Assembly (NCBI GenBank): GCA_013388645.1
Contig: JACAEV010000140.1
Coordinates: 9,700 to 73,699, forward strand
Origin: Syntrophaceae bacterium
GTDB taxonomy: Bacteria > Desulfobacterota > BSN033 > UBA1163
Direction of reading: 5' to 3'
Length of the DNA stretch: 64,000 bases
The notes below the pieces were generated by a model. It saw nothing but the letters and a program-made list of their open reading frames with translations. It was not told where the DNA came from and made no database searches. Each line of letters opens with the position of its first letter. Position 1 is the first letter of the stretch. Positions 7,561-51,217 of the stretch are shown piece by piece. The translations under genes were made by a program, and so were the position numbers.

Positions 7561-7806
7561 TTACCAAGGAGTCCATAATTGAAAAGACATATCGTTCTGA
7601 AAATCTCCCCTTTTGCCAAAGAGGGGTAATTCCTCCCTTTGCAAAAGGGAGGGGAGGAGGGATTTGGTCTTCAATGTCCATACAATTATGGACTGATTAG
7701 TATATCTTCTCAGCTTTGGGTCTTCTGATTGCGTTGGCATTCCTTTAACTCCCTGTCACTCCATTGACAACATCAATTTTTTTGTTATATTGAAGCGACA
7801 TTTTAG

Positions 7807-19763: not shown

Positions 19764-19830
19764 AAATGTTTAATCCGTTCTGCAGTGCTGCGGTACTGCA
19801 GTCATGCTGTGTATAAGTGAAGGAATAAGT

Positions 19831-20979
19831 ATGAAAGATTTTCTAACCGGAAATCATGCGGTGGCCCATGCAGTTAAACTTTGTCGGACCCCCCTGATCG
19901 CAGCTTACCCGATTACTCCTCAGACGGCCATCTACGAGAAACTTTCTGAATGGGAGGCATCGGGTGTGTTGAAGGGAATCATGATGCGGACAGAATCCGA
20001 ACATTCCGCAATGGCCTCCTGTATCGCGGCCTCCTTAACTGGAGTGAGGACCTTTACTGCTACTTCCTCTCAAGGGATTGCCCTCATGCATGAGATGCTT
20101 CATTTTGCTGCTGGCTGTCGTGCTCCAGTGGTTATGGCCAATGTCAATCGACTCTTGGCCGCTCCATGGGGATTCTGGGCTGACCAGTTAGATAGCCTTT
20201 CTCAGAGAGATACAGGATGGATTCAGTTTTACTGTGAAAATGGTCAGGAAGCCCTCGATACGGTCATTCAGTCTTACAAAATTGCGGAACAGGTTTATCT
20301 TCCAGCGATGGTTTCTCTGGAAGCCTTCTTTGTCTCCCATTTTATGGAGCCTGTGGACATTCCAGAACAGGAACAAGTCGATCGATTCCTTCCCCCTCTG
20401 GACCTTCCGCATAAGTTCGATATTGATAAGCCCGGATTTTTCGTCCCGGTGGTTTCGTCCGAATTATATCGGAAATATAAACATATGGCTCAGGAGTCCA
20501 TGGACTCTGTGAAAGAGATTGCCGTGAAAGTCGATCAAGAATTTAAGGAGGAATTTGGACGGGGTTATGGGATGATTGAGTCGGTTGCGCTGGAAGATGC
20601 GGAGGTAGCTCTTGTGACAGCGGGATCGATTACAAGCACAGCGAGGCTGGCCATAAAAAATCTTCGTAAACAAGGGAACAAGGTTGGCTTACTAAAGGTG
20701 CGCCTCTTTAGACCTTTTCCTGTGGAGGCAATTCAAGTGGCCCTAAAAGGGAAGAAAAAAATCGCAATCATTGATCGAAACCTCTCTCTTGGAAGCGGTG
20801 GGATATTCTGCCAAGAGTTGAGAGCAACTTTGATTCACTCTCCTGACCACCCCCTTACCTATAGTTATATTGCTGGAATAGGGGGGACAGATGTGACCCC
20901 TGAAGTCATTCAAAAAATTGCTATGGAAGTGATGAGTCGAACGGAACCAGTAGACAAGCCGATGTGGGTTATGGAATAG
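19831..20979 (+). CDS. 2-oxoacid:ferredoxin oxidoreductase alpha subunit
   Basis: LTGNHAVAHAVKLCRTPLIAAYPITPQT and the TESEHSAMASCIAASLTG motif. Start set at ATG 19831 (MKDFLTGN), in frame with the track ORF. Confidence 0.85.
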   Translation: MKDFLTGNHAVAHAVKLCRTPLIAAYPITPQTAIYEKLSEWEASGVLKGIMMRTESEHSAMASCIAASLTGVRTFTATSSQGIALMHEMLHFAAGCRAPVVMANVNRLLAAPWGFWADQLDSLSQRDTGWIQFYCENGQEALDTVIQSYKIAEQVYLPAMVSLEAFFVSHFMEPVDIPEQEQVDRFLPPLDLPHKFDIDKPGFFVPVVSSELYRKYKHMAQESMDSVKEIAVKVDQEFKEEFGRGYGMIESVALEDAEVALVTAGSITSTARLAIKNLRKQGNKVGLLKVRLFRPFPVEAIQVALKGKKKIAIIDRNLSLGSGGIFCQELRATLIHSPDHPLTYSYIAGIGGTDVTPEVIQKIAMEVMSRTEPVDKPMWVME

Positions 20980-20994
20980 TAGTGAATTACAGAA

Positions 20995-21110
20995 ACAAAT
21001 CCAAAACTCAAAAGGTTATATAGTTTTGAGTTTTGACGTTTGAATATTTGAGTTTGTTTAGAGTTTAGGGTTTCGAGTTTAGGGTTTAACTTCTTTGTTT
21101 CGGATTTTTC
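20995..21110. repeat. Intergenic palindromic element family A (tandem heptamers GTTTAGR / YCTAAAC); core 21052..21087
   Basis: The 36-nt core gtttgtttagagtttagggtttcgagtttagggttt is repeated with one mismatch at 50238..50273. A flanking 12-bp perfect hairpin caaaactcaaaa/ttttgagttttg lies just after the alpha-subunit stop. Confidence 0.7.
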
Positions 21111-21118
21111 GATAACTT

Positions 21119-22036
21119 ATGTTACCAGGCTGTGAGAGACGTATGATTCAACCAGAGCAACAACCCAACTTACTTCGGTCGGGTCATGCAGCCTGTGCGG
21201 GTTGCGGACTTGCTATCGGCATGAAACTGGTGCTTCAAGCCATGGGACCTCGAACCATAGCGGTGATTGTTCCATCCTGTGAAGGAGCTATCGGAGGAGT
21301 ATATCCTTATACTTCTTATGGGGTCCCGACCATCCATTCTGCTTTTGAAATTGCCGCTCCCACTGCAGCCGGGATCGCTAATGCCTTAAAAATTCAAGGA
21401 AGGGATGATATTCAAGTGTTGGCTTTTGCTGGAGATGGCGGAACGTTTGATATTGGTTTAGCATCTCTTTCAGGGGCAACCAAAAATAACGAGGATATCA
21501 TTTATGTCTGTCTCGATAACGAGGCCTACATGAATACCGGAATTCAGGTCAGCTCTGCCACTCCTTCCTATGCGTGGACAGGGACAACCCCCGAAGGGAA
21601 CCCCCGACGAAAGAAGAATATCATGGAGATCATGGCTGCCCATTACAATCCTTATTCAGCGACGGCGACGATCGGTTTTCCCCGCGATCTCCAGCAAAAA
21701 ATTACTAAAGCAAAAAACATCCGGGGGACAAAATTCATTCATCTGCTTGTCCCTTGCCCAACGGGTTGGAGGACACCATCCGACATTTCCCCTGAATTAT
21801 CCATTCTCGCTGTGGAGACGAAGGTTTTTCCCCTTTATGAGGTGGAAGATGGGAAGAGATATACCATCAACTATGAACCACGCCATCTCCCTATCCAGGA
21901 ATACCTTGTGAAACAGGGAAGATTTAGACATTTAAAGGAGGAGCAGATTAGAAAGATTCAAAGAGATGTGGATGAGGAGTGGGAGAAATTAAAACAAAGA
22001 GCAAGACCTTCCCCAAAAACAAGGGCTTTTAGTTAA
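21119..22036 (+). CDS. 2-oxoacid:ferredoxin oxidoreductase beta subunit (TPP-binding)
   Basis: GCGLAIGMKLV...AFAGDGGTFDIGLASLSGA...CLDNEAYMNTG thiamine-diphosphate-binding motifs. Confidence 0.85.
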   Translation: MLPGCERRMIQPEQQPNLLRSGHAACAGCGLAIGMKLVLQAMGPRTIAVIVPSCEGAIGGVYPYTSYGVPTIHSAFEIAAPTAAGIANALKIQGRDDIQVLAFAGDGGTFDIGLASLSGATKNNEDIIYVCLDNEAYMNTGIQVSSATPSYAWTGTTPEGNPRRKKNIMEIMAAHYNPYSATATIGFPRDLQQKITKAKNIRGTKFIHLLVPCPTGWRTPSDISPELSILAVETKVFPLYEVEDGKRYTINYEPRHLPIQEYLVKQGRFRHLKEEQIRKIQRDVDEEWEKLKQRARPSPKTRAFS

Positions 22037-22396
22037 GGTCAAGAAGCCAATGGTATACAAGGAACGACGAACAAAGAACGATAAACAGAGAGTATGAAGC
22101 AGTAGTTCTCGATCATCGTTTAACGTTCGATATGCCTTAAGGAAGCTTAAATCCTCAGTGATTGTTTCAAATAATACAAAGGAACGCTAATGCTTTTGGA
22201 AAAGGAGAGATTTTTAAAAAATTATTTTAAAATCCCCCGTTATTCCCTTTTGCCAAAGGAGGATAAGAAAGCCAATAACCAGGGATTACCAGGAAGCGAA
22301 TGTTTTATTGACCAGAAGTGGAAACACAAGGGGTTGGGTTTAGAGGTTGACCAGCCACAACGACCTCATTTACAACCCCATTGAAGAGAGGTGACC

Positions 22397-23068: not shown

Positions 23069-23160
23069 GAGTAAATCCAAAAGGGTAATTTAATGGAGTC
23101 TGGAACCTTGGAGTGATGGAATAATGAGGAAAGAGCAAAAACAGATGGAGGTTATAGCCG

Positions 23161-24084: not shown

Positions 24085-24175
24085 AAATTGGAATGATGGA
24101 TTGTTGGAATGCTGGGTAAATAAGGGAACATTTTGGTTTTCATATCATTCCAGTATTCCATTATTCCTGATCATA
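24085..24175. repeat. Intergenic palindromic element family B (GGAATRNTGG / CCANYATTCC units)
   Basis: Imperfect hairpin ggaatgatggattgttggaatgctgg ... catatcattccagtattccattattcc. A second copy lies at 46125..46235 and a half-copy around 23100..23135. Confidence 0.6.
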
Positions 24176-26957: not shown

Positions 26958-27051
26958 GAATGGAGTTTTTAACCTCGAAGTTTTTAAGTTGGGTGATTTT
27001 CAAAAACTCTGAACTACGAACTCATCACTCCGAACTTATAAGGGGGAAGCC

Positions 27052-28188
27052 ATGATATATCCTAAAGGAGAAGTGATCCATCGAAATTTATCGACTGCCT
27101 TCACAGATTTGAATGCCCTCTTGGCGACATTAAAATCAGGAAATTTTAGTGGCGTGGTTGAAATCGAATTCCCTGAAAACAGAGGCGCCATCTTTGTCGA
27201 CTCCGGAGAAATTATTAATGCCGAGGCCAAACCGGGGGATGGTTCAAAAGGGATGGTCGGGCATGAGGCAATCCAGTCCCTGCTCACCTTTTCGAAGGAA
27301 AAAAGTGGGTCTATTAATATTTATCAACTGGCTCCTGAGAGAGTGGCCATCGTGGCCAGCAACCTTCAACATGAAGTTCTTTTCAAAGGGCTCTCGACGG
27401 ATTTTACGCGTTTAGATCGATTGCTCCTGAAATTGAGAGAAGAAAAACACAATGGTTTTATAGAAATTCTGACAAAAGAGAACCAAACCATGGGCGTGTT
27501 GTTCCTTGAAGGCGGAGAACCCGTCGAGATGTTTACACCCTCCGAATCGGGGCCTTCCGTTTTCGGCCGAAAATCAATTCCGATATTTGTGGAGAATGCT
27601 ATTAAACAGGGAGCGATCTTTGATGTTTACAGAAGTCAGGGTAAAATTTTGAAGAAGGAAATAAAGGAAAAAGAGGTAAAAGAAAAAGAGATCAAAGAGA
27701 TAAAAGAGGGAAAAGAAACAGAGGTAAAAGAAACAAAAGAAATGAAGGAGACAAAAGAAGCAAAAGAAATCAAAGTTACAGGTAGGGGAGAAGAAATTAA
27801 GGAACTTATTTTGATTTTTCAGGATATTCTCTCCAAGGCAGAAAAATTAATTAATGGAGCCTCAAAGGATAAAGAAGTATTTTATAAAGCTTTTAAAGAA
27901 TCCCTTATAGAAAAATCAGAGGTATTTCCTTTCCTTGATCCATTTGCCGGTGAATTTGCATTTCGGGGGGGAGTGATTCAATTCACAGGAGAGGTGGGAG
28001 CAAAAGATTTTACTAAGGGAATCGTAGAATGCCTGGTGGCTACTCTATCACACCTCGAGCAGGAATTAACAAAAGAAAAGATGCTTCCTTTAAAGCTGAA
28101 AGCGGGCATAGAATCCTCTCTGGAGCAGCATAAGGAGGTGTTGAAGCGGTTAGGAGTGGCGGATATTACCTCTAATATTTTCAAATAG
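27052..28188 (+). CDS. Tandem DUF4388 (PATAN-like) domain protein with internal Lys/Glu repeat linker
   Basis: Two DUF4388-like units (SGNFSGVVEIEFPENRGAIFVDSGEIINAE; HNGFIEILTKENQTMGVLFLEGGEPVEM). A ~45-aa KE(I/V)KE repeat is encoded by tandem AAAGAR-rich DNA at 27650..27780. The C-terminal segment resembles the C-terminus of the 25159 protein. Confidence 0.5.
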   Translation: MIYPKGEVIHRNLSTAFTDLNALLATLKSGNFSGVVEIEFPENRGAIFVDSGEIINAEAKPGDGSKGMVGHEAIQSLLTFSKEKSGSINIYQLAPERVAIVASNLQHEVLFKGLSTDFTRLDRLLLKLREEKHNGFIEILTKENQTMGVLFLEGGEPVEMFTPSESGPSVFGRKSIPIFVENAIKQGAIFDVYRSQGKILKKEIKEKEVKEKEIKEIKEGKETEVKETKEMKETKEAKEIKVTGRGEEIKELILIFQDILSKAEKLINGASKDKEVFYKAFKESLIEKSEVFPFLDPFAGEFAFRGGVIQFTGEVGAKDFTKGIVECLVATLSHLEQELTKEKMLPLKLKAGIESSLEQHKEVLKRLGVADITSNIFK

Positions 28189-28567: not shown

Positions 28568-29578
28568 ATGAGACGTTGGAAGATGATCAGTTTCGTTCTT
28601 TGTTTGTCGTTGATTGGATTTGTTGCTTCACCTGCATTGGCGCAGATTAAGCTAAATTACTCCGTGTTTTTTCCTGCCCCACATAAGAATGCTGTCCTTG
28701 CAACGGATTGGGCCAAAGAGATCGAAAAGAGGACAGGTGGGAAGGTTCAAATTACCGTTTTTCCAGGTGGAACATTGACACCTGCTGATAAGTGCTACGA
28801 TGGGGTGGTAAAAGGAATATCAGATATTGGTTTTTCAGTGATGGCCTACACCAGGGGAAAGTTCCCTTTGACAGAGGTTTCCGATTTGCCAATGGGTATG
28901 AAAACTGGGTTGGTCGCCACAAAAGTGATCAATGACTATTTTAAAAAATTTAAACCTAAAGAATTTGATGAAGTGAAAGTCATGTATCTCCATGGTCATG
29001 GTCCTGGGATCATTCATAGTAAAAAAGAAATCAAGACACTCGGAGATCTCAAAGGGGTCAAAATCCGCTGCACGGGAATGGCGGCAAAGATCGTTCAAGC
29101 CCTTGGGGCTACTCCAGTGGCCATGCCCATGGGTGAAACCTACGATGCTTTGAGCAGAGGCGTGGTTGATGCCTCCATGTCGCCACAAGAAGCACTGCAG
29201 GGCTGGAAATGGGGAGAAGTCGTGAAGTTTACCATTGAAAACTTTGGATCCTCTTACAGTACAGGGATGTTCGTTGTAATGAATAAAGATAAGTGGAATT
29301 CTTTACCCCCGGACATTCAGAAGATCATCGAACAGGTGAATGAAGAATATATTGAAAAACAGGGGAAGGTTTGGGATGAAATCGATAAAGCGGGAAGAGA
29401 TTATACGATTGCTCGTGGTAACAAAATCATTTCTCTTTCAGCGGATGAAGATAGAAAGTGGGAAAAGGCTGTCAAACCCCTTCTCGATGAATACAAGAAG
29501 AATATGAAGGATAAGGGCCTCCCTGGGGATGAAGTGCTGAGTTTCTATTTCCAGACCATCTATAAATATCAAAAGTAA
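28568..29578 (+). CDS. dctP: TRAP transporter substrate-binding protein (DctP family)
   Basis: Signal peptide MRRWKMISFVLCLSLIGFVASPALAQ and DctP-fold motifs. RBS AAAGGAGG precedes ATG 28568. Confidence 0.8.
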   Translation: MRRWKMISFVLCLSLIGFVASPALAQIKLNYSVFFPAPHKNAVLATDWAKEIEKRTGGKVQITVFPGGTLTPADKCYDGVVKGISDIGFSVMAYTRGKFPLTEVSDLPMGMKTGLVATKVINDYFKKFKPKEFDEVKVMYLHGHGPGIIHSKKEIKTLGDLKGVKIRCTGMAAKIVQALGATPVAMPMGETYDALSRGVVDASMSPQEALQGWKWGEVVKFTIENFGSSYSTGMFVVMNKDKWNSLPPDIQKIIEQVNEEYIEKQGKVWDEIDKAGRDYTIARGNKIISLSADEDRKWEKAVKPLLDEYKKNMKDKGLPGDEVLSFYFQTIYKYQK

Positions 29579-46099: not shown

Positions 46100-46124
46100 T
46101 CTATCATCCTCCTTATTAGTCTAT

Positions 46125-46235
46125 ACGCATAGAGTGAATAGCCGTAGGATGATGGAATGTTGGAATAATGGAATAATGAAAAAACAGCCTTTTATTAAAA
46201 CCCATTATTCCAATATTCCACTATTCCAATTGTAC
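46125..46235. repeat. Intergenic palindromic element family B, second copy
   Basis: ggatgatggaatgttggaataatggaataatg ... cattattccaatattccactattccaat, an imperfect hairpin related to 24085..24175. Confidence 0.6.
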
Positions 46236-46619: not shown

Positions 46620-46771
46620 TTCTCTCCTCCGTCGAAAGTTCGGAGACAATCATTTTGTAGTTTCTTGGTCTGATAGTCTCACAATCTTTAACTATACGAC
46701 TAATAGACCAATTGACTATGTGACTATGTCACTAATGACTCCGAACTCCCAATTCCGAACTCTGAACTGTT

Positions 46772-48427: not shown

Positions 48428-48538
48428 AATTCGCTCCCAGAAAAAGGGGACAGGCTACTTTTTAAAGAACTTACTTCGGGAAAGACTGCATATACTCTTA
48501 TTTCTCATGAAAAAGTAGCCTGTCCCCTTTTTTTATTC

Positions 48539-50113
48539 TTACAGTGGTATATTTCCATGCTTTCGCCAGGGATTGGTATCAACTTTTGTCTTCAAAATAT
48601 CGAGGGCTTGGATGATCTTGGGGCGAGTTTCCTCAGGTTCGATGATCTCATCGACATATCCTAATTCCGCTGCCTTATAGGGGCTTGCAAATTTCTCATG
48701 ATATTCGGCGACGAGTTGCTCGCGTGTCTCCTTAGGATCTTTAGCAGTTTTGAGTTCGTTTCGAAAGATGATATTGACCGCCCCATCTGCACCCATCACT
48801 GCAATTTCGGCAGTAGGGTAACAGTAATTGATATCACCCCGGATATGTTTACTCGACATCACATCATACGCCCCTCCGTAGCCTTTCCGGGTGATGATCG
48901 TGATCTTCGGGACTGTGGCTTCACAGAATGCGTAGAGGAGTTTCGATCCATGTCGAATAATTCCTCTTTCCTCCATATCCATTCCAGGAAGAAAACCCGG
49001 GACATCCACAAAGGTGACCAGAGGGATATTAAAACAATCACAAAAGCGTACGAATCGGCCAGCCTTCACCGAGGAGTCCGGGTCAAGAGAGCCGGCTAAC
49101 CAATTGGGCTGGTTGGCAATGATTCCTACTGGCATACCGTTGTAACGGGCAAATCCGATGACGATGTTCTTGGCCCAATCTTTCTGGACTTCAAGGAAGT
49201 AACCGTTATCCACGGTTGGGACGATCACTTTTTTCATGTCGTAGGCCTTTTTGGAATCTTCGGGGACGGCTGTTTTTAAAGATTCGTCCATTCGATTGGG
49301 GTCATCCGTGCATGCAATGACGGGTGGTTTTTCCCGATTATTCTGAGGGAGAAATCGGAGCAGTTCTTTGGTGAGACGAATGGTATCCTCGTCATTTTCT
49401 CCTGCAAAATGGGCTACACCACTCTTTTCCATATGGACTTTTGCTCCTCCTAAAAGTTCAGAGGTAATGGGCCTCCCATCGGCAGTCTCTGTCTTACCCA
49501 GGGCTGCCCGGATGACATCAGGCCCTGTGATGTGCATATAACTTGTTTTCTTCGTCATTAAAATGAAATCGGTCATGGCAGGGGAATAAACGGCTCCCCC
49601 TGCGCAGGGTCCCATGATGGCAGATATCTGTGGGATCACACCGGAGGCCAATACGTTCCTTAAAAAGATGTAGGCATAGCCTGCGAGACTCTCAACACCT
49701 TCTTGAATTCTTGCTCCTCCGGAATCATTTAAACCGATTATGGGTGCTCCTGTCTTCATCGCCAGATCCATGACCTTACAAATCTTTTCTGCAAAAGCCA
49801 TTCCCAGGGCACCGCCGAATACAGTGAAATCTTGAGAGAAAACATAGGTCAGCCGACCTTCGATCTTTCCATAACCTGTTACCACCCCATCCCCGAAAAA
49901 TTTCTTCTTCTCCATGCCAAAATCGGTGCAACGGTGGGTGACGAAGCGGTCCAGCTCAACAAACGTCCCGGGATCGAATAGAAGATCAATACGTTCACGG
50001 GCCGTCAGCTTTCCATCTTGGTGCTGCTTATCAATTCGCTCCTGCCCCCCTCCCAATAATGTTTCAGCCCTTCTTTTTTCTAATTCTTTACGTATCGCTT
50101 CAATTGACTTCAT
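48539..50113 (-). CDS. Acyl-CoA carboxylase carboxyltransferase subunit (propionyl-CoA carboxylase beta / methylmalonyl-CoA carboxyltransferase 12S-like)
   Basis: 524-aa protein with the N-terminal [13 protein letters not shown] motif and the duplicated crotonase-like carboxyltransferase fold. Confidence 0.85.
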
Positions 50114-50140
50114 GAACGAATTTCCCTCCTACAAAAAATA

Positions 50141-50275
50141 AACTCTAAATCTAAAACGCTAAATCCTAAATAAACTCAAAACTCAAAATCGAAATATCGA
50201 AACACCCCTTTTTGGGTTTAAAGTTTTGGACTTTGGGTTTGTTTAGAGTTTAGGGTTTCGAGTTTAGTGTTTCTT
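50141..50275. repeat. Intergenic palindromic element family A, second copy (core 50238..50273)
   Basis: Left arm is (CTAAAYN)n and right arm is gtttgtttagagtttagggtttcgagtttagtgttt. The right arm overlaps the meaB stop codon. Confidence 0.7.
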
Positions 50276-51217
50276 AAGTTCCTCTGCCATTACCTTTTCG
50301 GCTACAGAATAAGGATCGATTCGACGGTTCATCAGGTCTTCGATGATTTTATCCCATTGTCCTTCTTTTTCCATTTTTTCAATAAAATGGGCCATGACCT
50401 CCGTCTCAAGAATTTCTAAAAAGGTGGTCTTGGTTCTTTCTCTCAGTTTTTTTTCCAAGGCTTGGTTTTGCTCCAACGCCTGTTTATGACGGTAGATTCC
50501 ATAAACGAGTTCAAAAATCCCTTTTCCTAATATTGCCTCGGTTTTAAAAATGGGAGGCTCCCAACCATCCTCTCTTTTTCGACCCATTTCAAGAACCATC
50601 CGGAGATCTCGTTCCATTTTATCTGCCCCTTCCCGATCACATTTATTGATGACAAAAAGATCTCCAATTTCAATGATCCCAGCCTTAATGGCCTGTATGT
50701 CGTCTCCTAATCCTGGGACGAGGATGACAATGGAGGTGTGGGCGGTATTGACAATCTCCACCTCATCCTGTCCTACGCCCACAGTTTCAACCAGGATGAT
50801 ATCTTTTCCCATGGCATCCATGACATTAATAATATCTTGAGTCGAACGGGTCAATCCGCCCAAGCATCCTCGCGTCGCCAGGGAGCGAATAAATACCCCT
50901 TCGTCCGTGGCGTGGCGTTGCATCCGGATTCGGTCTCCTAAGATCGCACCGCCGGTGAAGGGGCTGGTGGGATCAACCGCCACAATTCCAACGGTTTTTC
51001 CTTCCTTGCGGAAGATATCCACCATTTTGTCAACGATGGTGGACTTGCCTGAGCCCGGTGGACCCGTGATCCCAATAATGTAAGCTCTCCCCGTCTTTGG
51101 ATAAAGTTCCTTTAAGGGTTCAAGTGCGCTGGGCATCCGATCGTCAATATCCCTCATCAATCTGGATGCCGCCCGAATATCCCCCTCTAAAATTCTTTGA
51201 GCTATACCCATAGGCAC
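50264..51217 (-). CDS. meaB: MeaB/ArgK methylmalonyl-CoA mutase-associated GTPase
   Basis: GITGPPGSGKST P-loop and the ArgK-family layout. Confidence 0.85.
   Translation of the reverse strand: MPMGIAQRILEGDIRAASRLMRDIDDRMPSALEPLKELYPKTGRAYIIGITGPPGSGKSTIVDKMVDIFRKEGKTVGIVAVDPTSPFTGGAILGDRIRMQRHATDEGVFIRSLATRGCLGGLTRSTQDIINVMDAMGKDIILVETVGVGQDEVEIVNTAHTSIVILVPGLGDDIQAIKAGIIEIGDLFVINKCDREGADKMERDLRMVLEMGRKREDGWEPPIFKTEAILGKGIFELVYGIYRHKQALEQNQALEKKLRERTKTTFLEILETEVMAHFIEKMEKEGQWDKIIEDLMNRRIDPYSVAEKVMAEELKKH

Follow-up and report, generated by a model that had tools for sequence, protein, structure and literature searches.

Heptamer palindromes in two operon spacers of a Syntrophaceae bacterium are probable gene-less relics of a mobile S23p cassette

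Introduction

Two gene spacers in a 64,000-nt stretch of DNA from a Syntrophaceae bacterium (assembly GCA_013388645.1, contig JACAEV010000140.1, positions 9,700 to 73,699; hereafter the window) hold the same palindromic repeat, built from tandem heptamers of the type GTTTAGR, which raises the question of what this repeat is and where it came from. A reading of the letters made without database searches (the sequence-only reading) had likened the pair to repetitive extragenic palindromes and bacterial interspersed mosaic elements (REP/BIME) or to miniature inverted-repeat transposable elements (MITEs), and had proposed that they could act as terminators, mRNA stabilizers or protein-binding sites. 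Here we report that both repeats are, with a probability of about 0.78, decayed, gene-less derivatives of a ~545-bp mobile cassette of an uncultured Thermodesulfobacteriota lineage, the single gene of which belongs to the S23p family. The earlier interpretation as a whole is partly supported.

Intervening sequences of 23S rRNA that carry an S23p open reading frame (ORF) have been known since about 1990 and raise questions about their origin, their movement and the role of the protein. As far as sequence comparison can show it, the copies described here show that S23p-type elements settle between ordinary genes too, beyond ribosomal RNA.

Results

The 36-nt core of the repeat (GTTTGTTTAGAGTTTAGGGTTTCGAGTTTAGGGTTT) lies at 21052–21087 (+) in copy 1, as a run of five tandem heptamers, and copy 2 has it with a single mismatch at 50237–50272 (+), one base away from where the sequence-only reading had put it; shuffled sequence gives 0.00 chance matches to the 36-mer. 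The two copies agree at 81% over 64 nt without a gap. Their construction from tandem heptamers is borne out by Tandem Repeats Finder (period 7, 4.6–4.7 copies at each site) and by a lag-7 self-identity of 0.52–0.62, compared with 0.25 ± 0.045 in random 120-nt windows of the same sequence. The heptamer units of the core are unequal (AGA, AGG, CGA, AGG, AAC), and their order is kept in ~50 copies together with non-periodic flanks.

Among long simple repeats, those with heptanucleotide units are in many bacteria the most abundant, and slippage has been given as their cause (Mrazek 2007, as summarized in PMC4679880). Local replication slippage could therefore be invoked here, with chance, convergence or a single local duplication making the two sites alike, and an extra 14-nt unit in two members of the family (L189 and L194; L numbers are our labels for individual sequences) is in keeping with it. 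However, the match of the 36-mer has no chance expectation, ~50 unrelated contigs conserve the order of units and ~60 nt of flanking sequence without periodicity, and the similarity reaches into remnants of a protein-coding gene. Because of these conserved flanks and gene remnants, slippage combined with chance resemblance can be excluded, and we leave next to no probability to this explanation.

The extent of the family became apparent from metagenomes, which were queried with a 20-mer common to both window copies (GTTTAGGGTTTCGAGTTTAG); at least 120 stretches matched. Among the matches listed, 52 share ~100 nt of conserved sequence with copy 1, including its 12-bp hairpin, in surroundings that are otherwise unrelated and range in GC content from 0.37 to 0.52, and ~50 of the contigs listed contain a conserved palindromic element of ~200 nt. 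About half of the listed matches are degenerate (TTTAGGG)n arrays with no similarity beyond the heptamers; they were judged to be eukaryote-like telomeric sequence and set aside as unrelated. The telomere-like appearance of the window repeats is incidental. There are dozens of copies in related genomes. Within the 64-kb window, the arm profile of the family matches at 21023–21111 and 50210–50296 alone. Searches of plasmids, phages and viral contigs gave no match to the element, and Rfam gave chance-level matches only (E at least 1.6, for 20700–21400).

The end of one Logan contig (L121) and the start of another (L258), both of SRR10095362 and both bearing window genes, were first read as a sign of many copies. 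The breaks lie within the 31 nt common to the two copies and for this reason reflect, as breaks of a de Bruijn graph by a repeat, just the two copies already known.

The nature of the element is revealed by its longer members. Full gene-less copies have an A/C-rich heptamer left arm (...GGTTTAAACTCTAAACACTAAACTCTAAATCCTAAACAAATCCAAAATCTAAAACTCAAAAG) opposite the right arm that bears the core, and at their termini inverted repeats such as AAATCCGAAGCACGAAAT...ATTTCGTGCTTCGGATTT close the element; the part between the arms varies in size, being 7–12 nt, ~24 nt, ~48 nt or ~300 nt long. The ~300-nt centre (L167 and L239; interrupted in L247) is an ORF on the strand opposite the core, with matches to two family models: TIGR02436, ‘four helix bundle protein’, at E = 2.6e-19, and PF05635, ‘23S rRNA-intervening sequence protein’, at E = 8e-13. 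An ORF of this family is enclosed by the arms in L167, L239 and L248–L250. The full cassette is ~545 nt long (549 nt in L249), with a gene of 119–134 codons. Its 5' arm is a tandem series of A/C-rich heptamers (TTAAACC, CTAAACT, CGAAACC, CTAAACT, CTAAACA and so on) that runs into the start of the gene, and its 3' arm, after the gene, is made of complementary G/T-rich heptamers; in L249, arm pairs of 19–27 nt with 79–88% complementarity flank the ORF. L248 and L249, whose ends are sharp, terminate in inverted repeats (AAATCCGAA...TTCGGATTT), which are present in many gene-less copies too; in the window, copy 1 is without its 3' end and copy 2 has them in degenerate form.

The encoded protein ties the core to this gene. 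At least 120 protein clusters are 82% or more identical to the cassette protein, and the four that name a source are all entered as ‘four helix bundle protein [Thermodesulfobacteriota bacterium]’. Among the proteins listed, 42 of 120 are annotated with 134 residues and start with MLN(P/S)KLE(T/I)LNSKQ, the translated antisense of the 36-mer core, and 36 of 120 are entered at 119 residues; the start of these is an ATG further downstream, corresponding in reverse complement to the conserved GGACAT of the arm. Because the N terminus of S23p translates the antisense of the core, the core is the antisense of the cassette 5' arm, that is, of the leader and the first codons. The nearest solved structure to the protein is 2RLD, an uncharacterised protein, and PADLOC gave no match.

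Copy 1 (20990–21116, minus strand) is, according to the nhmmer arm model and cassette mapping, a truncated gene-less derivative of this cassette. It fills the spacer between the alpha and beta subunit genes of a 2-oxoacid:ferredoxin oxidoreductase (POR), and, with the cassette reading along the minus strand, it runs antisense to the por genes. An arm model built from metagenome copies matches the window at 21023–21111 (nhmmer E = 8.7e-20), and the copy aligns with positions 35–113 and 445–474 of the 549-nt L249 cassette, the body of the ORF being gone. Its antisense translation scores against the S23p family profile through the N-terminal codons (E = 8.3e-6), the core corresponding to codons 2–13 (LNPKLETLNSKQ) of the S23p ORF in its longer version. 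A short remnant of the 3' arm (20997–21019, +), recognized by its alignment to cassette positions 445–474 and by inverted-repeat pairs, is left, the remainder of that arm being missing. The perfect 12-bp inverted repeat of copy 1 (21002–21035, with arms at 21002–21013 and 21024–21035 and a 10-nt loop), which the sequence-only reading had described correctly, is the innermost stem and marks the point at which the ORF was deleted; the same AAAACTCAAAAG / loop / GGTTTTGAGTTTT stem recurs in minimal-class copies at other loci.

Copy 2 (50127–50285, minus strand; its boundary on the meaB side is uncertain) is, by cassette mapping and nhmmer, a diverged gene-less derivative that has both arms and is sense relative to meaB and the carboxyltransferase gene between which it lies. 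It aligns with cassette positions 31–112, 440–506 and 533–549. The homologue of the 5' arm, read on the antisense strand, spans 50210–50296 (+; nhmmer E = 1.8e-15), and that of the 3' arm, an A/C-rich CTAAAYN series already described in the sequence-only reading, spans 50139–50192 (+; left-arm model of nhmmer, E = 2.4e-4, and inverted-repeat pairs). There is no intact S23p gene within the 64-kb window: in both copies the body of the ORF is deleted and the first codons remain.

Both window copies lie in spacers between co-directional genes, the identity of which, as given by the sequence-only reading, is upheld by Pfam. Copy 1 follows the POR alpha subunit gene (19804–20979, +; POR_N, PFOR_II) and precedes the gene for the thiamine pyrophosphate (TPP)-binding beta subunit (21119–22036, +; TPP_enzyme_C); the source organism belongs to the uncultured Thermodesulfobacteriota, and the window POR alpha protein is 85–90% identical to proteins of metagenome-assembled genomes of this phylum and of metagenomes. 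In the direction of transcription, copy 2 is preceded by meaB (50264–51217, −; MeaB) and followed by the carboxyltransferase gene (48539–50113, −; Carboxyl_trans), the GGAGGG ribosome-binding site of which stands just outside the element. Two further claims of that reading hold in part. An intergenic position is correct for copy 1, but in copy 2 the core runs into the end of meaB, taking in its stop and two final codons (50264–50272), and is therefore not strictly intergenic. As for the core being one arm of a larger palindrome, copy 2 has a partner arm of 31–39 nt (72–77% complementarity), whereas the partner, or ‘left arm’, in copy 1 is just ~24 nt long (71–82%).

At copy 1, the first ATG of the POR beta gene (21119) directly abuts the element and is without a ribosome-binding site; an in-frame ATG at 21144 has GAGAGA ahead of it and may be the true start. 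At copy 2, the stop and last codons of meaB are supplied by the 5' arm of the element. More generally, the C-terminal tail and stop of MeaB derive from whatever element occupies the spacer (50264–50285 in the window, ~1990–2017 in L191): the window protein ends in ...AEELKKH, and that of L191 continues into another heptamer element and ends in ...GEELNPKSQITNNK. An exact-sequence look-up found no sequence on record identical to the window meaB product.

How the short copies arose can be read from what they retain. Three deletion classes keep both ends of the cassette without its middle, and each class is found at several unrelated loci: the 48-nt class retains positions 1–119 and 416–548, the 24-nt class ~1–115 and ~425–540, and the minimal class ~1–115/121 and 443/454–548. 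On these alignments, the family is shown to derive from the S23p cassette by internal deletion, which gives short MITE-like palindromes, and the comparison with MITEs was right in substance: this is a dispersed, multi-copy palindromic family of internal-deletion derivatives of a longer cassette. Evidence for movement of the full cassette comes from GCA_030017685.1, where one contig bears two gene-carrying copies 39 kb apart that are ~98–99% identical over ~545 nt, with sharp ends (AAATCCGAATATTG... and ...TTCGGATTTAAA) and unrelated flanks, one between genes for a PD-(D/E)XK nuclease and a leucyl aminopeptidase and the other between two genes of a deoxythymidine diphosphate (dTDP)-sugar pathway. 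Such near-identity between unrelated flanks shows, at the level of DNA comparison, a recent spread of the cassette within one genome.

All copies examined sit between protein-coding genes, and none in helix 25 or 45 of 23S rRNA. Among strong matches with long ORFs on both sides, 24 of 26 elements lie between co-directional genes, and the orientation is biased, 20 being S23p-sense and 4 antisense (one-sided binomial p ~0.0008); gene-carrying copies with annotated neighbours are sense in three of three cases. Window copy 2 shares this sense orientation, and copy 1 is among the minority of antisense cases. The comparison of copies thus shows a cassette that occupies operon spacers with a bias towards the sense strand.

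Full gene-less copies are predicted to fold, as extended hairpins with interruptions, far better than shuffled sequences (z = −5.1 to −6.7), their stem being a succession of 5-bp helices with mismatches between them at the variable positions of the heptamers. By RNA structure prediction, a check that had been proposed together with the sequence-only reading, the window copies are no more stable than shuffled sequence (z = −0.85 and −1.33; −0.9 and −1.25 in a second run). Terminator scans, which look for a GC-rich stem followed by a T run, found no terminator-like site at either window copy; together with the poor folding, this leaves the suggested terminator role unsupported.

Spacers at orthologous positions in relatives of the source organism show turnover. 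In L181, whose POR alpha and beta proteins are 82–83% identical to those of the window, a full gene-less copy lies in the same alpha–beta spacer in the opposite orientation; in L122–L127, which are closer by POR alpha identity, this spacer holds unrelated palindromes of other 7–8-nt units, and in one of these (L125, POR alpha 87% identical) the arm profile matches in another spacer, between two coenzyme A (CoA)-transferase genes. In L191 (meaB product 86% and carboxyltransferase 93% identical), the meaB–carboxyltransferase spacer holds a different heptamer palindrome, and a copy of the family lies downstream of the carboxyltransferase gene. In L206 (proteins 86–94% identical), a copy stands where the window has a palindrome of TGGAAT-type 8-mers. 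In L206, L191 and L125, the element occupies positions that hold other sequence in the window, and the converse is also seen.

Several observations weigh against descent from a mobile cassette. The cassette encodes no transposase or known mobility enzyme, the four-helix-bundle ORF being its sole ORF; no target-site duplication was found, none being evident at the junctions of L248 and L249, both of them filled sites; and many gene-less copies have fuzzy ends and variable numbers of AAATCCGA-type units. The sample of the family is biased, being anchored on a 20-mer from the window, and the copy count for the source genome, at least two, comes from the 64-kb window. Co-transcription of the cassette with the host operon and cutting of its stem by RNase III are both argued by analogy only. 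Of 33 predicted base pairs, nearly all are invariant and 2 have a compensatory change, so that covariation is uninformative; descent accounts for this conservation, from which little can be learned about selection for pairing. Finally, every relative examined has some palindrome in its POR alpha–beta spacer, as would also be expected under selection for structure at this position.

Such selection is the substance of an alternative in which the repeat is an intercistronic RNA element maintained by the host, the hairpin of which would set mRNA processing, segmental stability or translational uncoupling, as in E. coli REP/BIME, and in which the similarity between sites would reflect a shared recognition factor. 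We regard it as unlikely. The POR spacer palindromes, 160–190 nt long and made of 7–8-nt units of differing sequence, would fit this alternative, as would the near-exclusive placement between co-directional genes, the persistence of the 20:4 orientation bias even in gene-less copies, and a downstream ribosome-binding site that is always intact just outside the element. Yet the window copies fold no better than their shuffles, copy 1 is without one arm and in the minority antisense orientation, and the base pairs owe their conservation to descent, compensatory changes being almost absent; the unrelated or inverted elements at orthologous spacers argue against a site-specific function, and near-identical, sharp-ended gene-carrying copies point to recent spread and not to long-term maintenance.

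Heptamers that directly flank S23p genes are found beyond this family. Bacteroides homologues of 2RLD lie, in sense orientation, between araD and araA or between genes for an aminotransferase and 3-deoxy-D-arabino-heptulosonate 7-phosphate (DAHP) synthase; they are flanked by (AATTGAC)4-5 upstream and (GTCAATT)4 downstream, in arms of 31–47 nt with 89–97% complementarity, and the number of units differs between L251 and L252. In Coxiella, the 23S intervening sequence has stem-forming terminal inverted repeats and an S23p ORF and is excised by RNase III, and tandem GACAGAT heptamers, the number of which varies between strains, precede the start codon (PMC4990558). Inverted arms built of heptamers therefore surround S23p genes in three lineages distant from one another, and the unit differs in each, being TAAACNN in the cassette, AATTGAC in Bacteroides and GACAGAT in Coxiella.

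This recurrence speaks for a second alternative, in which the heptamers would be DNA- or RNA-binding arrays for a multimeric protein, pentameric S23p being the obvious candidate, and gene-less copies would act in trans. S23p of Xanthomonas is a toroidal homopentamer (Lin et al. 2006, as cited in PMC4990558), and the heterogeneous order of units is kept across more than 50 copies. However, binding by S23p is putative, descent from a common cassette explains the order of units equally well, the number of units is not fixed, and heptamer arrays of other genomes are found with no S23p gene nearby; the alternative is compatible with the data, and we give it a low probability.

These other arrays come from a scan of a genome collection with the degenerate pattern GTTTNRR ×5, which found arrays in at least 120 genomes (L001–L120). 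Arrays with at least five units are frequent in Bacteroidota, Cyanobacteria, Acidobacteriota and further groups, and several (L006, L026, L033, L038 and L057) are directly followed by an inverted array, with which they form hairpins. The 36-nt core is in none of the (GTTTNRR)5 arrays listed, and a broad family profile found no S23p gene near the (GTTTNRR)n arrays of the listed genomes. The proposition that all heptamer arrays come from S23p cassettes was dropped as unsupported on the latter ground.

Other repeats in the window and nested elements

Further short-unit arrays are scattered through the window, at least seven spacers containing one. The TGGAAT-type 8-mer family has three copies (23101–23136; 24089–24124, with a partner at 24147–24167; and 46153–46188, with a partner at 46202–46220), each between co-directional genes, of which two form a palindrome with their inverted partner; it is the site at 46100–46220 to which the copy in L206 is orthologous. 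Right after the POR beta stop, at 22055–22081, there is a heptamer-like ACAAGGAACGACGAACAAAGAACGA series, which has a local inverted partner and also an inverted copy 6.5 kb away (28593–28619, 85% complementary). The spacers 26958–27051 and 46650–46771 are filled by palindromic or tandem arrays of short units (NNGAACT heptamers, GACTATGT ×2, ACTCCGA ×4.4). Directly downstream of the carboxyltransferase gene lies a 28-nt inverted repeat (48441–48468 / 48505–48532, 93% complementary, 36-nt gap), and it is at the position matching 48441–48532 that L191 holds its copy of the heptamer family.

Inserts are nested within several members of the family: a GC-rich hairpin of ~34 nt, CCTGCCTGCGCGAAGCCGCTTCGGCGAAGGCAGG, in L181, L191, L217, L159, L185 and L187; an insert bounded by ACCCTTCGA...TCGAATGGGT in L128, L226 and L245; and an insert of ~100 nt bounded by CCCTGTTAAGTA...TACTTAACAGGG in L178, L189, L217, L219 and L228. 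The ORF of L247 is interrupted by one nested element. These inserts look like separate mobile hairpins that target heptamer elements. Elsewhere in the window, an A/G-rich tandem repeat at 27658–27774 (periods 9, 15, 24 and 33) lies inside the ORF 27052–28188 and presumably encodes a lysine/glutamate-rich low-complexity segment, and a GC-rich hairpin motif, CCCTTTTGCCAAAG(A)GGGG, found in two long intergenic regions (7608–7629 and 22245–22266), may be another small dispersed repeat.

Discussion

If the window repeats descend from an S23p cassette, the behaviour of the parent can be sketched by analogy with the intervening sequences of 23S rRNA. The cassette would be transcribed together with its host operon; its arms would pair as a long stem around the gene, as in S23p intervening sequences excised from 23S rRNA by RNase III, and this stem may likewise be cut by RNase III. 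Insertion would be nearly harmless because the polycistronic RNA would merely be cut between cistrons, and arms made of repeated units would still be able to pair after slippage or partial deletion. The two window elements are most probably neutral relics, copy 1 being reduced to one arm and the 12-bp hairpin and copy 2 having both arms in diverged form. If they have any effect today, it would be confined to a weak hairpin in the RNA of the operon and to the donated stop codon of meaB, which illustrates that such elements are able to give host genes stop codons and C-terminal tails.

A broader proposal is offered tentatively, and we rate it as doubtful: S23p cassettes would form a distinct and widespread class of bacterial mobile elements with no conventional transposase, in which a four-helix-bundle gene stands between inverted arms of tandem heptamers. 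The pentameric protein would recognize the heptamers of its own element, as DNA or RNA. An element of this kind would invade any well-transcribed spacer, be it an rRNA helix or an operon spacer, its insertion being made harmless by RNase III cutting of the stem. Gene-less relics would then explain part of the excess of intergenic heptamer repeats and heptamer palindromes in Bacteroidota, Thermodesulfobacteriota and other phyla, and the explanation could extend to the other short-unit palindromes of this window.

In the literature consulted, which covers part of the journals, we found no description of S23p cassettes in operon spacers or of gene-less derivatives. The combination of an S23p gene, inverted arms and tandem heptamers outside rRNA thus adds a multi-copy operon-spacer cassette, present in two phyla and with recent near-identical copies and MITE-like gene-less progeny, to what has been reported of this family. 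It makes old questions about S23p testable, namely whether RNase III cuts in operon mRNA, whether the heptamers are bound and what catalyses insertion, and annotators who meet odd heptamer palindromes now have a concrete origin to assign to them, in place of a label of low-complexity sequence.

Comparison with known systems

In behaviour the repeats resemble MITEs and in construction S23p intervening sequences, and they lack one defining feature of each class, because the parent has no transposase and the element lies outside rRNA. The S23p intervening sequences of Coxiella burnetii, Leptospira and other bacteria resemble the cassette in having a PF05635/TIGR02436 ORF inside stem-forming terminal inverted repeats and, beside the start of the ORF, tandem heptamers of variable number; they are sporadic and regarded as selfish, and their ORF is decaying or absent in several bacteria (PMC4990558), as is the case here. 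They differ in location, lying in helix 25 or 45 of 23S rRNA, where they are cut by RNase III, whereas the cassette lies between protein genes of operons. They differ also in number and in products: the cassette is multi-copy within a genome and yields short gene-less derivatives, the ORF-less window copies among them.

MITEs such as Correia/NEMIS of Neisseria, ERIC/IRU of enterobacteria and BrickBuilt resemble the element in being short, multi-copy, non-coding sequences of intergenic regions that have terminal inverted repeats; they too are internal-deletion derivatives of longer parents, are often co-transcribed with their neighbours and are capable of forming hairpins. BrickBuilt of Porphyromonas gingivalis, which contains a minisatellite, demonstrates that tandem repeats can form the heart of a MITE (PMC4596501). 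Unlike in MITEs, the parent is without a transposase, no target-site duplication was found, the arms consist nearly entirely of 7-nt units and the orientation bias is strong.

The REP/BIME elements of gamma-proteobacteria share with the element their palindromic form, their position in operon spacers and at 3' ends, and their mosaic and nested arrangements. REPs are imperfect GC-rich palindromes of 20–40 nt with a conserved 5' GTAG, and are mobilised by REP-associated tyrosine transposases (RAYTs). By contrast, the element is AT-rich, ~130–550 nt long, 7-nt periodic and derived from a protein-coding cassette, and it contains no short GC-rich REP palindrome, so the REP/BIME side of the sequence-only reading is not supported.

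In periodicity, the element is like the TAACTGA repeats of Beggiatoaceae, Cyanobacteria and Bacteroidetes (PMC4679880) and the short tandemly repeated repetitive (STRR) sequences of cyanobacteria, which are likewise intergenic tandem heptamers, often right before a start codon, and which are enriched in Bacteroidota and Cyanobacteria, the phyla with the most arrays among those listed by our degenerate heptamer scan. Those repeats form homogeneous direct arrays with no fixed inverted partner and no tie to one gene family; the units described here, by contrast, are heterogeneous, stand in a fixed order, face an inverted partner arm and border an S23p gene or what is left of one.

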